Source of the DNA: a virus
Virus genome (UHGV): UHGV-1406243
DNA length: 11,436 bases
Reading direction: 5' to 3' (one strand)
Below the pieces are notes generated by a model. That model made no database searches. It saw nothing but the letters and a program-made list of their open reading frames with translations, and was not told where the DNA came from. The translations under genes and the position numbers were made by a program. This document shows positions 3,603-10,654 of the stretch, one piece after another; the first letter of the stretch is position 1, and each line of letters opens with the position of its first letter.

Positions 3603-3861
3603 TGATCGTTTTAATTCCCTGAAACAGGAATGTGATATTTACCACGAAACAATAGACCGCGCATTTCTTGCACTTTCTCACAGTGAAAACATGCTGGAAA
3701 TATTGCGCATATGGCTTGAAACACTTGGCGACAATGAACGCGACAAACAAAAATCAAGAATTGCCACGGCATTAATAACGCTTCTTGAGCCTGTAATAAT
3801 GGAACTGCAAGAAATAGATCTATTGCACGACAGATATAAAGAACAGCACACCGGAGAATAA
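3595..3861 (+). CDS. Hypothetical protein (88 aa)
   Basis: ATG 3595 is preceded by GGGGGG; 8-nt overlap with the upstream gene. Confidence 0.65.
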   Translation: MRDDRFNSLKQECDIYHETIDRAFLALSHSENMLEILRIWLETLGDNERDKQKSRIATALITLLEPVIMELQEIDLLHDRYKEQHTGE

Positions 3862-3866
3862 AAATA

Positions 3867-4166
3867 ATGAAACTTAAATATTCTGGCTTAACTGCCAGTG
3901 GCAACACTCACCCTAAATTTACGCGCGGCGATATTTACCGCGACCAGTACGGCGGCACGGTAATGATTAAGGGCGTGGAAGAACGGCGCGTAACCTACCG
4001 CCGTGAAGGTTACGAATATGATTGCGTGATGCCTGTTTATCAGTTCCGGCGTGATTTTTCTCTGGTACAGACCGCGCCGCATAACGTGTCCACCAGCAAC
4101 GCCAGGGCACGGGCAAACATCCAGAAGCTGAAAACCATGATTAACGGATTCAGGGGTAAAAAATGA
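3867..4166 (+). CDS. Hypothetical protein (99 aa)
   Basis: ATG 3867 is preceded by GGAG. Its stop overlaps the primase start (ATGA at 4163..4166). Confidence 0.7.
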   Translation: MKLKYSGLTASGNTHPKFTRGDIYRDQYGGTVMIKGVEERRVTYRREGYEYDCVMPVYQFRRDFSLVQTAPHNVSTSNARARANIQKLKTMINGFRGKK

Positions 4167-5917
4167 AACTGGCACCGAACGTAAAACAGCAGTCACGCGG
4201 CATAAAACACAAAGAAACAGAAGTCATTATTTTTGCGGGTAGTGATGCCTGGTCACACGCAAAACAATGGCAGGAACATGACGCGCGTATGGCCGGAGAT
4301 AATGAGCCTCCTGTGTGGCTTGGGGAGCAGCAGTTATCCGAACTGGATAAGCTGCAAATTGTGCCGGAAGGCAGAAAATCCGTGCGCATATTCAGGGCCG
4401 GATATCTTGCGCCAGTAATGATAAAGGCGATTGGTCAGAAGCTGGCGGCGGCAGGCGTACAGGATGCAAATTTTTACCCTGATGGTATGCACGGTCAGAA
4501 GGTGGAGAACTGGCGCGAATATCTGGCCCGTGAGCGCCAGAATCTTTCTGATGGTCTGGTCATTGAGCTTCCGGTAAAGCAAAAGGCGCAACTTTCGCAG
4601 ATGGCGGACAGTGAGCGCGCGCAGCTGCTTGCCGATCGCTTTGATGGCGTTTGCGTACATCCTGAAAGTGAAATCGTTCACGTATGGCGCGGCGGGGTAT
4701 GGTGTCCGGTCAGCACAATGGAACTTAGCCGCGAAATGGTGGCGATCTATTCAGAGCACAGGGCCACTTTCAGCAAGCGCGTAATCAATAACGCCGTGGA
4801 AGCGTTAAAAGTTATTGCCGAACCAATGGGCGAGCCGTCCGGCGATTTGTTGCCGTTCGCCAATGGTGCGCTTGACCTGAAAACGGGGGAATTTTCCCCG
4901 CACACGCCGGAGAACTGGATCACCACGCACAACGGCATTGAGTACACGCCACCAGCACCAGGGGAGAACATCCGCGATAACGCGCCAAACTTTCATAAAT
5001 GGCTTGAGCACGCAGCCGGAAAAGACCCGCGCAAGATGATGCGTATATGTGCCGCGCTGTACATGATTATGGCGAACCGGTACGACTGGCAGATGTTTAT
5101 TGAGGCCACCGGAGACGGCGGGAGCGGTAAAAGTACATTCACACACATAGCCAGCCTTCTGGCAGGGAAACAGAACACGGTAAGCGCTGAAATGACATCG
5201 CTTGATGATGCTGGTGGACGTGCGCAGGTTGTCGGGAGTCGTCTTATCGTCCTGGCTGACCAGCCGAAATATACAGGCGAAGGAACGGGCATCAAGAAAA
5301 TCACGGGCGGTGACCCCGTGGAAATTAACCCGAAATACGAAAAGCGTTTCACGGCGGTAATCAGGGCGGTGGTGCTGGCGACCAACAATAACCCGATGAT
5401 ATTCACCGAACGGGCCGGAGGTGTGGCACGTCGTCGCGTGATTTTCCGTTTCGACAATATCGTCAGTGAGGCCGAAAAAGACAGGGAGCTACCGGAAAAG
5501 ATCGCGGCTGAAATCCCTGTCATTATCCGCCGATTGCTGGCGAACTTTACCGACCCTGAGAAGGCACGGGCTTTACTACTGGAACAGCGTGACGGTGATG
5601 AAGCTCTGGCAATAAAGCAACAGACGGATCCGGTTATTGAGTTTTGCCAGTTCCTGAATTTTCTGGAGGAAGCACGCGGCCTGATGATGGGCGGCGGTGG
5701 CGATTCAGTGAAGTACACGACCAGAAACAGCCTTTACCGCGTCTATCTGGCGTTTATGGCGTACGCAGGCAGGAGCAAACCGCTAAACGTAAATGACTTT
5801 GGCAAGGCTATGAAGCCAGCCGCGAAAGTTTACGGACATGAATATATTACGCGGAAAGTTAAGGGAGTAACGCAGACTAACGCAATAACAACAGACGAGT
5901 GCGACGCGTTTTTATAA
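4163..5917 (+). CDS. Replication initiator: P4 alpha-like primase/helicase (D5-type SF3 NTPase domain)
   Basis: 584-aa ORF. Walker A GDGGSGKST and Walker B-like RLIVLADQ are read directly in the C-terminal half. Gene size and the iteron array immediately downstream match satellite Pri-Rep / P4 alpha proteins. The N-terminal primase domain was not confirmed motif by motif. Confidence 0.85.
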   Translation: MKLAPNVKQQSRGIKHKETEVIIFAGSDAWSHAKQWQEHDARMAGDNEPPVWLGEQQLSELDKLQIVPEGRKSVRIFRAGYLAPVMIKAIGQKLAAAGVQDANFYPDGMHGQKVENWREYLARERQNLSDGLVIELPVKQKAQLSQMADSERAQLLADRFDGVCVHPESEIVHVWRGGVWCPVSTMELSREMVAIYSEHRATFSKRVINNAVEALKVIAEPMGEPSGDLLPFANGALDLKTGEFSPHTPENWITTHNGIEYTPPAPGENIRDNAPNFHKWLEHAAGKDPRKMMRICAALYMIMANRYDWQMFIEATGDGGSGKSTFTHIASLLAGKQNTVSAEMTSLDDAGGRAQVVGSRLIVLADQPKYTGEGTGIKKITGGDPVEINPKYEKRFTAVIRAVVLATNNNPMIFTERAGGVARRRVIFRFDNIVSEAEKDRELPEKIAAEIPVIIRRLLANFTDPEKARALLLEQRDGDEALAIKQQTDPVIEFCQFLNFLEEARGLMMGGGGDSVKYTTRNSLYRVYLAFMAYAGRSKPLNVNDFGKAMKPAAKVYGHEYITRKVKGVTQTNAITTDECDAFL

Positions 5918-5929
5918 TTTTTTGTAATT

Positions 5930-6160
5930 GCTGTCTACCCTGTCTACCTGAGTAAAGAAAAATACATTTAATTCAGTGCATTAAGTTAGGTAGATAGCCT
6001 TTTTTTACTGTCTACCCACTATCTACCCTCTCTACCTGATTTTACCTGAATCAGACAGGGAGGTAGACACGGGGTAGATAGTGGATAAAAGCACTCTACC
6101 CCGCTGAAAGCCGCGCCATTACTGGTATGAGGGCCACTAAGGTAGATAAGGTAGACAAGG
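5930..6160. other. Putative origin of replication: iteron array of YCTACC / GGTAGAY motifs with dyad organisation; duplicated at 6379..6609
   Basis: At least 11 copies of the core (T/C)CTACC. Direct copies lie at 5933..6048 (TGTCTACCCTGTCTACCTG, TGTCTACCC, ATCTACCC, TCTACCTG) and inverted copies at 6061..6160 (GGTAGACAC, GGTAGATAG, GGTAGATAAGGTAGACAAGG), centred near 6055. It sits directly downstream of the primase gene. Confidence 0.55.
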
Positions 6161-6205
6161 GGAGGCACAACTCAAAACTTTTTAAACGAGGGGGTAAAAA
6201 TAAAT

Positions 6206-6262
6206 ATGCACACTTCAGGGAAATTTAATAAATCACTCAAAATGACTTTGGCAAGGCTATGA
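6206..6262 (+). pseudogene. Truncated duplicate of the start of the 92-aa gene (18 codons, then stop), created by the tandem duplication
   Basis: Same RBS and first 12 codons (MHTSGKFNKSLK) as the gene at 6655; the reading frame then runs into the duplicated primase 3' fragment and stops. Confidence 0.4.
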
Positions 6263-6654
6263 AGCCAGCCGCGAAAGTTTACGGACATGAATATATTACG
6301 CGGAAAGTTAAGGGAGTAACGCAGACTAACGCAATAACAACAGACGAGTGCGACGCGTTTTTATAATTTTTTGTAATTGCTGTCTACCCTGTCTACCTGA
6401 GTAAAGAAAAATACATTTAATTCAGTGCATTAAGTTAGGTAGATAGCCTTTTTTTACTGTCTACCCACTATCTACCCTCTCTACCTGATTTTACCTGAAT
6501 CAGACAGGGAGGTAGACACGGGGTAGATAGTGGATAAAAGCACTCTACCCCGCTGAAAGCCGCGCCATTACTGGTATGAGGGCCACTAAGGTAGATAAGG
6601 TAGACAAGGGGAGGCACAACTCAAAACTTTTTAAACGAGGGGGTAAAAATAAAT

Positions 6655-6933
6655 ATGCACACTTCAGGGAAATTTAATAAATCACTCAAAAAACGCAGAG
6701 ACAGAACAGAACCGAAATATCGCGCGTTAGACATGACAGAGCACGCTTTAAAGGTGGCAATCAGAACGATAGACCGCCACGCGGGGGAAGGATACGCGAA
6801 AGCACATCCCGAACTGATAAGCGCATTCATGACCACGACGGCGGCAAATTTTGCCACGCTGACAGAGCGGGAGATTGCCGAAGCGGAACAGGTAACAACC
6901 ATCAACGTTAAAACCGGAGAGGTGGAATCATGA
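6655..6933 (+). CDS. Hypothetical protein (92 aa)
   Basis: Strong RBS GAGGGGGT upstream; stop overlaps the ssb start (ATGA). Confidence 0.65.
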   Translation: MHTSGKFNKSLKKRRDRTEPKYRALDMTEHALKVAIRTIDRHAGEGYAKAHPELISAFMTTTAANFATLTEREIAEAEQVTTINVKTGEVES

Positions 6934-7352
6934 CAGCACAGATAGCAGCTTACGGGCGGCTGGTGGACGACCCGCAGGTAAAACAGACCAGCAAGGGCAC
7001 ACCGATGACGCTGGCGCGTATGGCGGTCCCCCTTCCGTGCAGCCAGGCAGATGACGGAACGGCGACGATGTGGTTATCCGTCCTGGCATTTGGCAGACAG
7101 GCCGAAGCACTGGAAAGGCACCGCAAGGGTGAACTCCTGAGCGTGGCGGGTAACATGCAGATCAGCCAGTGGACTGGGCAGAACGGAGAAACGCGGCAGG
7201 GCTGGCAGGTTATCGCAGACAGTGTAATCAGTGCGCGAACGGCGCGACTGGGCGGCAAAAAAGGTCAACAGGGCCAGGCTACTGACGCGCTGAACAGGGC
7301 AAAACAACAGGCGGGGAATGATGATCCGTACGGGGATAACATACCGTTTTAA
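6930..7352 (+). CDS. ssb: Single-stranded DNA-binding protein (short SSB with acidic C-terminal tip)
   Basis: OB-fold pattern comparable to E. coli SSB (IAAYGRLVDDPQVKQT..WLSVLAFGRQAEALERHRKGELLSVAGNMQISQWTGQNGETRQGWQV) and C-terminal DDPYGDNIPF matching the conserved D-D-D-I-P-F tail. Confidence 0.85.
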   Translation: MTAQIAAYGRLVDDPQVKQTSKGTPMTLARMAVPLPCSQADDGTATMWLSVLAFGRQAEALERHRKGELLSVAGNMQISQWTGQNGETRQGWQVIADSVISARTARLGGKKGQQGQATDALNRAKQQAGNDDPYGDNIPF

Positions 7353-9832: not shown

Positions 9833-9912
9833 ACGGGTCCTTTCCGGCATATGGACCCGTTACGGGGCGGCGACCTCGCGGGTTTTCGCTATTTATGACG
9901 TTTTTCCGTGAA
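9830..9912 (+). other. Lambda-type cos site: cosQ-like TTTACGGGTCCTTTCCGG, cosN with the 12-nt cohesive-end sequence GGGCGGCGACCT (9864..9875), and a proximal cosB with one R3-like element
   Basis: 40 contiguous bases at 9858..9897 (GTTACGGGGCGGCGACCTCGCGGGTTTTCGCTATTTATGA) match the junction of the lambda right and left ends as I recall it, and TTTACGGGTCCTTTCCGG matches the lambda right-end sequence. It lies about 90 bp upstream of the Nu1-like gene, as in lambda. Confidence 0.8.
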
Positions 9913-10570: not shown

Positions 10571-10654
10571 CCGAAAAATTTTCATAAATAGTGAAAACGC
10601 GCGAGGTCGCCGCCCCGTAACGGGCCATAATTCCAGGAAGGACCCGACGACACC
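10571..10654 (-). other. Second lambda-type cos site in inverted orientation (reverse complement of cosN AGGTCGCCGCCC at 10604..10615, with cosQ-like and proximal cosB flanks)
   Basis: The reverse complement of 10571..10654 reads GGTCCTTCCTGG..GTTACGGGGCGGCGACCTCGCGCGTTTTCACTATTTATGAAAATTTTTCGG, matching the lambda cos junction on both sides of cosN. It is an inverted copy of the cos at 9830..9912. Confidence 0.75.

Follow-up and report, generated by a model that had tools for sequence, protein, structure and literature searches.

The iteron-rich region found directly 3' of the initiator gene in the 11,436-nt stretch of DNA analysed here in full (virus genome UHGV-1406243, hereafter the window) in all probability serves a phage-inducible chromosomal island (PICI) of Escherichia coli, of the EcCICFT073 type, as its vegetative replication origin, and is present here twice as the result of a 449-bp tandem duplication. 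This type of origin has already been described and experimentally validated and, as an origin, there is nothing new in it. The replicon is found in roughly one quarter of the complete E. coli genomes (the origin module matched 1,367 out of 5,426, with 80% or more of the query covered in 460 of these) and is already being used as a conditional origin in biotechnology. The added value of our analysis is modest, and consists of a precise map of the sites, a corrected centre for their dyad symmetry, an iteron specificity that appears to track the P4-alpha-type domain of the initiator, two conserved elements that are not iterons (6102-6124 and 6173-6182) and a structural link between the origins of PICIs and the ori and crr sites of phage P4.

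The window is a PICI and its genes are unidirectional. An integrase gene (185-1399) is followed by the gene of an AlpA-like excisionase or regulator (1457-1726), and between the latter and the initiator gene, pri-rep, there are Icd-like and small unknown genes together with a DUF4222 gene. The first intact gene downstream of the origin codes for a hypothetical protein of 92 aa (PHROG 1231; 6655-6933, plus strand) and is followed by an SSB gene (6930-7352); further island genes code for a major capsid protein of the lambda-E-like kind and for a head decoration protein. The sequence GGGCGGCGACCT, an exact lambda-type cosN, is found twice, in opposite orientation, at 9865-9876 (plus strand) and 10604-10615 (minus strand), and two cos sites were also reported for EcCICFT073. 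In the closest complete genome, that of E. coli CFSAN067215, the island is located between the two halves of tqsA. A megablast search of the phage database INPHARED gave no match. There are also some sequences missing from the window when it is compared with the closest genome (NZ_CP028320.1). At 1312-1329 two fragments of 116 and 126 nt are absent around a 16-nt island that has been kept, TTTTCAGTATGCGCAT, with replacement of the last ca. 34 residues of the integrase and loss of part of the int-alpA intergenic region, and another 193 nt are missing at 3631/3632, within a row of small paralogous genes. None of these three private deletions has microhomology, and their junctions are absent from the 5,426 complete E. 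coli genomes.

By enumerating the motif on both strands we found exactly 11 TCTACC/GGTAGA hexamers between 5934 and 6155, six of them on the plus strand (TCTACC, starting at 5934, 5943, 6011, 6022, 6031 and 6095) and five on the minus strand (GGTAGA, starting at 5989, 6062, 6073, 6141 and 6150). The preliminary description of this DNA, made from the letters alone, had counted at least eleven YCTACC elements, and the number stands, with the Y being a T at every site of the array; when the flanks are included the consensus becomes CTRTCTACCY. It had also been left to be seen whether such a frequency exceeds the compositional background, and it clearly does: 5000 dinucleotide-preserving shuffles of the 231-nt region 5930-6160 contained on average 0.24 copies of TCTACC and never more than 3, and in 2000 shuffles of the same region no hexamer of any sequence exceeded 6 copies. 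Outside the repeated block there is a single TCTACC in the remaining 10.5 kb of the window. The distances between neighbouring cores are 9, 46, 22, 11, 9, 31, 11, 22, 46 and 9 bp, and five plus/minus pairs of cores share a common centre at 6044.5; in none of 20,000 random placements did as many as five pairs coincide in this way. The dyad proposed in the preliminary description is thus real, with five mirror pairs, but its centre had been misplaced near 6055. The arrangement of direct copies on the left and inverted ones on the right also holds in broad terms, the two halves being mirror images, but they are not pure, as each contains one copy in the opposite orientation (+ + - + + + / - - + - -). 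Finally, the region that had been delimited, 5930-6160, covers only the first of two origin copies; a second block at 6383-6604 brings the number of cores in the window to 22. The mirror iterons also produce a long hairpin upon single-strand folding (z -3.96). We have set it aside as a functional cruciform or ssDNA structure, since the folding is a by-product of the dyad. An Rfam scan of 5700-6800 gave only miRNA-precursor matches far below the gathering scores, and these sub-threshold matches are due to the palindrome.

The first copy of the origin spans 5918-6198 (no strand is assigned to it), which is the stretch matching a published 284-nt primase-dependent origin fragment, 'Crep', and it is built of two units. 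The left unit (5934-6036) begins with two direct iterons (5934 and 5943). A 40-nt AT-rich spacer separates these from a single inverted iteron (5989), and after a T-rich gap of 16 nt come three more direct iterons (6011, 6022 and 6031), with a degenerate TTTACC located beside the unit (6041-6046). The spacer (5949-5988) reaches 75-80% AT in the composition profile and is a candidate DNA-unwinding element; an AT-rich spacer appears at the equivalent place in the relatives and in the P4 ori. The right unit (6062-6155) mirrors the left, with two inverted iterons (6062 and 6073), a direct one (6095), a 40-nt spacer, in this case GC-rich, and two final inverted iterons (6141 and 6150). Inside this GC-rich spacer there is a conserved 23-nt element that is not an iteron, GCTGAAAGCCGCGCCATTACTGG (6102-6124), the columns of which are 90-100% conserved in 46 distinct alleles and which can still be recognised in the related loci L055, L069, L071 and L080. 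After the last pair of iterons comes an A/T palindrome, AAAACTTTTT (6173-6182), within a conserved block that reaches the ribosome-binding site of the next gene, and similar A-run/T-run motifs follow the terminal iteron pair in the relatives and each of the crr units of P4. The block itself (6171-6204, CAAAACTTTTTAAACGAGGGGGTAAAAATAAAT), located before the next gene, is nearly invariant across the 46 origin alleles. Another sequence that attracted our attention was TTATCCACT, at 6080-6088 on the minus strand, between two iterons of the right unit, that coincides with the DnaA box consensus at 8 of its 9 positions. We dropped the reading of this site as a DnaA box because it is not conserved in other alleles, and the match is probably fortuitous; as it was the only one detected, no DnaA box conserved across alleles was found in the origin.

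The initiator gene pri-rep (4163-5917, plus strand) codes for a 584-aa protein of the 'DNA primase family', Pri-Rep, with a Toprim-like N-terminal domain, a D5_N domain, an SF3 helicase (DUF5906) and, at the C-terminus, an origin-binding domain of the Pox_D5 / P4-alpha type, the Pox_D5 family being found by Pfam. Residues 194-432 match the SF3 helicase core of PriRep5 of SaPI5 (7OLA, E 3.8e-15), and residues 488-579 (5624-5899, plus strand), the winged-helix domain that presumably reads the iterons, match the origin-binding domain of phage P4 alpha (1KA8, E 7e-7 with phmmer). With the end of the gene at 5917 and the first iteron at 5934, the origin is immediately 3' of pri-rep, and the proposal of a candidate origin directly downstream of the initiator gene is borne out. 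The designation of this gene as a primase/helicase can be maintained only in part. The helicase and the origin-binding domain are clear, but to call the protein a primase goes beyond the evidence, since the N-terminal domain displays only a divergent Toprim-like fold in which no zinc ribbon was detected, and no sequence-detectable primase motifs were found in this domain. In the protein database the same N-terminal domain is also present on fragments annotated as RepA/AAA_25 helicase, SSB or PerC, and some of these may be gene-call fusions.

The resemblance to EcCICFT073, the island of E. coli CFT073, is extensive. Both have the same initiator (581 of 584 aa identical, 99.5%), with the origin in the same position 3' of the gene, and the intergenic DNA has the same length (288 nt) and is ca. 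95% identical. The 11 iteron cores and the AT-rich spacer are common to both and all 11 cores are unchanged, the ca. 15 substitutions falling, every one of them, outside the cores. Further downstream they also share the hypothetical gene, the SSB, the lambda-E-like capsid protein, the decoration protein and the two cosN. The differences are that the island in the window is inserted in tqsA, not at the CFT073 site, and that its origin is tandemly duplicated. In E. coli PICIs the iterons were described as forming two sets that flank an AT-rich region 3' of pri-rep (Fillol-Salom 2018, ISME J, PMC6092414), an organization that was then considered unique to PICIs (PMC6092414). The location 3' of pri-rep, the two sets of iterons with an AT-rich region, the homology and the island context all place the window within this EcCICFT073 type. 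In the same work, a plasmid carrying pri and ori was kept at the restrictive temperature of a thermosensitive vector and was lost when either ori or pri was missing (PMC6092414). In a more recent study the origin of a plasmid was swapped for a 'primase-ori', the replication of which needs the CFT073 primase in trans (Brödel 2024, Nature, PMC11338833), and the 284-nt fragment provided in the supplement of that article aligns to 5918-6198 of the window with 90% identity and 10 of the 11 cores. In other words, the experiment suggested in the preliminary description, primase-dependent replication of the fragment, was already in the literature, done with the nearly identical allele of CFT073, and the result is in favour of an origin (PMC6092414, PMC11338833). 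For that allele it is established that both the ori fragment and Pri-Rep are needed for plasmid replication and that Pri-Rep works in trans. The interpretation of the array as a satellite origin is supported by all this, the window carrying an allele of the EcCICFT073 PICI origin.

Other functions can be imagined for an array of this kind. It is located directly upstream of the next gene, the strongly conserved block with the ribosome-binding site (6171-6204) comes after it and such origins are often autoregulatory too, all of which would fit with its being mainly a transcriptional operator or enhancer for the downstream operon (the hypothetical gene, SSB and the capsid genes) and not an origin. 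However, the near-identical fragment gives primase-dependent replication, the iterons switch together with the DNA-binding domain of the initiator (see below), and the plus strand contained no sigma-70 promoter or terminator above the expectation from shuffles (two weak promoter-like sites were found on the minus strand). We consider it very improbable that this is the main function of the array, which may still have a secondary regulatory role besides that of origin. The sites recognised by the small subunit of terminases or by integrases are made of short oriented repeats as well, and the array could be read as a packaging (cos/pac) or a recombination site. This we rejected, with hardly any weight left for it: the two exact cosN sequences are elsewhere (9865-9876 and 10604-10615), the attachment sites are at the ends of the island in tqsA, and the replication function of the fragment has been demonstrated with the CFT073 allele.

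To the replication origin, then, we could compare those of 83 related loci, 80 of them from IMG/VR and 3 from species genomes (the search of genome contigs with a single protein yielded the latter 3, the scan of IMG/VR with an alignment of three proteins being far more productive). Among 46 distinct alleles of the TCTACC type, conservation was 0.915 in the columns of the cores versus 0.74 in the non-core intergenic columns (Mann-Whitney p 4e-9). The loci with initiators down to 70% identity retain 10-12 copies of TCTACC, and those with initiators at 52-55% identity have an equal number of sites in the same layout, with cores that are now GTTCAC(C), GTTCAT or GTATAC. All the copies of the iteron change together, as expected for sites that are read by one protein. 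When the comparison is made domain by domain, origin-binding domains with at least 57% identity go with TCTACC, and those with 37% or less go with GTTCAY. Two of the loci are particularly informative: L075, with an N-terminus 89% identical and an origin-binding domain only 35% identical, has the iteron GTTCACC, and L055, in which the N-terminus is 48% and the origin-binding domain 80% identical, has TCTACC. Judging from these sequences, the type of iteron follows the P4-alpha-type origin-binding domain and not the N-terminal domain. The comparison supports the suggestion of the preliminary description that the iterons define the specificity of the replicon, inasmuch as they change along with the domain that binds the origin at the C-terminus of the initiator. 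Linkage contributes to this co-variation, because the coding region of the domain adjoins the origin.

The initiator family is itself a mosaic of domains, with discordant identities when L055, L069 and L075 are compared with the gene of the window (4163-5917). In L075, for example, they are 89% (N-terminal domain), 33% (D5_N), 55% (helicase) and 35% (origin-binding domain). Mixed iterons were also detected. L084 (4262-4600) and L082 (4262-4600) both contain GTATAC, GTGTAC and GTTCAT, in different proportions, and their origin-binding domains are ca. 93% identical, with the differences clustered in the presumed wing (RKERKTRGVV vs. RKERRARGMV), which suggests either a relaxed reading (GTRTWCAT) or a shift of specificity in progress. 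In three other loci, L069 (4250-4650), L071 (4247-4650) and L080 (4271-4670), the halves of the origin are permuted, with the right unit first, then ca. 90 nt and then the left unit, indicating that the units are separable modules. A tandem duplication followed by the loss of the outer units would yield this permuted order. In addition, a Morganella relative (L007, 4460-4540) has an internal direct duplication in its origin, of ca. 27 nt and with an offset of 42, that adds two iterons.

A feature of the window that had been missed in the preliminary description is the perfect head-to-tail duplication of 449 bp that contains the origin. The first unit (5791-6239) and the second (6240-6688) are 100% identical, and the run of identity at an offset of 449 extends over 452 nt (5791-6242), as it includes a 3-nt microhomology, AAA, at the junction. 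Besides the whole origin, the duplicated unit takes in 127 nt from the 3' end of the initiator gene and 34 nt from the start of the next one. The second copy of the origin (6367-6647; left unit, 6383-6485; right unit, 6511-6604) provides 11 further TCTACC cores, so that the window has two complete iteron blocks. Despite the duplication, the genes on either side, that of the initiator (4163-5917) and the one downstream (6655-6933), are intact, and what is left between the two origins is a remnant ORF of 18 codons (6206-6262, plus strand; MHTSGKFNKSLKMTLARL followed by the stop), in which the start of the downstream gene is fused out of frame to the 3' fragment of the initiator gene.

The close relatives are all single-copy at the origin, and the duplication may be either a private variant or an artefact. 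We give substantial weight, albeit somewhat short of even, to the second copy having been created by assembly or editing, like the other private rearrangements, in an island that truly has a single origin. The two copies are 100% identical, a 45-nt probe of the junction found no match in the 5,426 complete E. coli genomes and a 30-nt probe found none in IMG/VR (2.9 M contigs) or in the JGI metagenomes. Along similar lines, a long direct repeat near the origin was found in none of the 83 related loci (0/83), and the window contains the three private deletions mentioned above, which have no microhomology and junctions found nowhere. On the other hand, the usual error of assemblers is to collapse tandem repeats and not to create them, the AAA microhomology and the intact flanking genes are what would be expected of a tolerated slippage event, and there are natural precedents for the duplication of units, namely the two 120-nt crr units of P4 and the short duplication of L007. 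Our preferred reading, an EcCICFT073-type origin present twice through tandem duplication, can be taken one step further. If the duplication is real, with two identical origins 449 bp apart, four units and 22 sites, the origins of the P4-alpha/PICI type might evolve by duplicating, permuting and separating one module of ca. 100 bp with six iterons. We advance this only tentatively and regard the combination as rather unlikely; it is suggested by the permuted forms of L069, L071 and L080 and by the similarity of the left unit to the P4 ori and of the right unit to crr. If true, the compact PICI origin and the split ori and crr of P4 would be two arrangements of the same parts, and a doubled origin might have an effect on copy number or on how the initiator is titrated. 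A real duplication would also be a natural two-origin construct for iteron dosage in satellite replication.

As for how such an origin might work, after induction Pri-Rep would use its C-terminal winged-helix domain, of the P4-alpha type, to bind the CTRTCTACCY iterons; that this is the domain reading the TCTACC iterons we infer from the sequence comparisons above. As an SF3 helicase Pri-Rep would load itself, and the mirror-image units, with 6 and 5 iterons, would probably receive one helicase hexamer each, resulting in a head-to-head pair. The duplex would probably begin to open in the left unit, at its 40-bp AT-rich spacer (5949-5988), and the primers might come from the Toprim-like N-terminal domain or from the host. 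In the large T antigen of SV40 and in E1 of the papillomaviruses, inverted pairs of 5-6-nt sites located beside an AT-rich tract lead to the assembly of two head-to-head SF3 hexamers. The double-hexamer picture is proposed by analogy only, because in the window the AT-rich stretch is inside the left unit and not at the centre of the dyad. The core origins of SV40 and the papillomaviruses differ also in their unrelated origin-binding domains and in their eukaryotic viral setting.

The comparison with phage P4, for which we used the annotation of GenBank NC_001609, our own sequence analysis and general knowledge, reveals a similar architecture. The P4 ori contains six type I repeats, TGTTCACC, that follow the order + + (AT spacer) - + + + when read in the direction of alpha. 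The left unit of the window has the same layout, with two direct iterons, an AT spacer of ca. 40 nt, one inverted iteron and 16 nt before three direct ones, and the offsets of its iterons (0, 9, 55, 77, 88 and 97) agree within 2 bp with those of the P4 ori (0, 10, 53, 75, 86 and 96). The second site of P4, crr, is directly 3' of alpha and consists of two direct 120-nt units. Each of them closes with an inverted iteron and, after a spacer of ca. 35 nt, a pair of iterons followed by an A-run/T-run motif. The right unit of the window has the same ending, in the same order and in the same position 3' of the initiator gene, and an A-run/T-run motif comes after it. Moreover, the C-terminal origin-binding domain of the initiator is homologous to that of alpha (1KA8). 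There are also differences. The iteron here is TGTCTACC versus the type I repeat TGTTCACC, with 2 of 8 positions differing, so that the sites of the window are not type I repeats, and the P4-type GTTCAC(C) appears only in relatives with initiators 53-55% identical. In P4 the units are apart, with ori located upstream of the alpha operon, whereas in the window they abut head to head; both are contiguous, with one further TCTACC elsewhere in the window, and do not make up separate ori and crr sites. The P4 alpha protein is longer, 777 aa compared with the 584 aa of Pri-Rep, and combines a zinc ribbon with a Toprim primase domain; in Pri-Rep the Toprim-like N-terminus seems divergent and no zinc ribbon was detected. 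From its architecture, the PICI origin resembles a head-to-head junction of two units, one similar to the P4 ori and the other to crr.

The classical iteron plasmids offer another comparison. In R6K, RK2, pPS10 or F the repeated sites of the initiator also have as their neighbour an AT-rich element for unwinding, and the specificity of the replicon is determined by the sequence of the iterons. Their iterons are direct repeats of 17-22 bp, and a Rep protein with two winged-helix domains recruits DnaA, DnaB and DnaC of the host. The window differs from them in having cores of 6-10 bp in both orientations and an initiator that is itself the SF3 helicase, and it does not belong among the iteron plasmid origins.

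A further comparison is with the SaPIs of Staphylococcus aureus. Like that of the window, their origins are located immediately 3' of rep, and have 6-12 short iterons (5-6 nt), in sets of opposed orientation on the two sides of an AT-rich region (PMC9371898). PriRep5 and its relatives are self-loading SF3 helicases, with a C-terminal winged-helix domain that binds the iterons 3' of rep (PMC9371898), and the helicase core of SaPI Rep/PriRep5 is homologous to that of Pri-Rep (7OLA), the initiators being alike also in the C-terminal winged helix. The SaPIs differ from the window in the sequence of the iterons, in the host and in a primase domain that is unrelated, and the AT-rich tract, instead of being central, is in the window inside one of the units. 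What the island analysed here has in common with the SaPI type of origin is a shared mode of working, and not the same sequence family.
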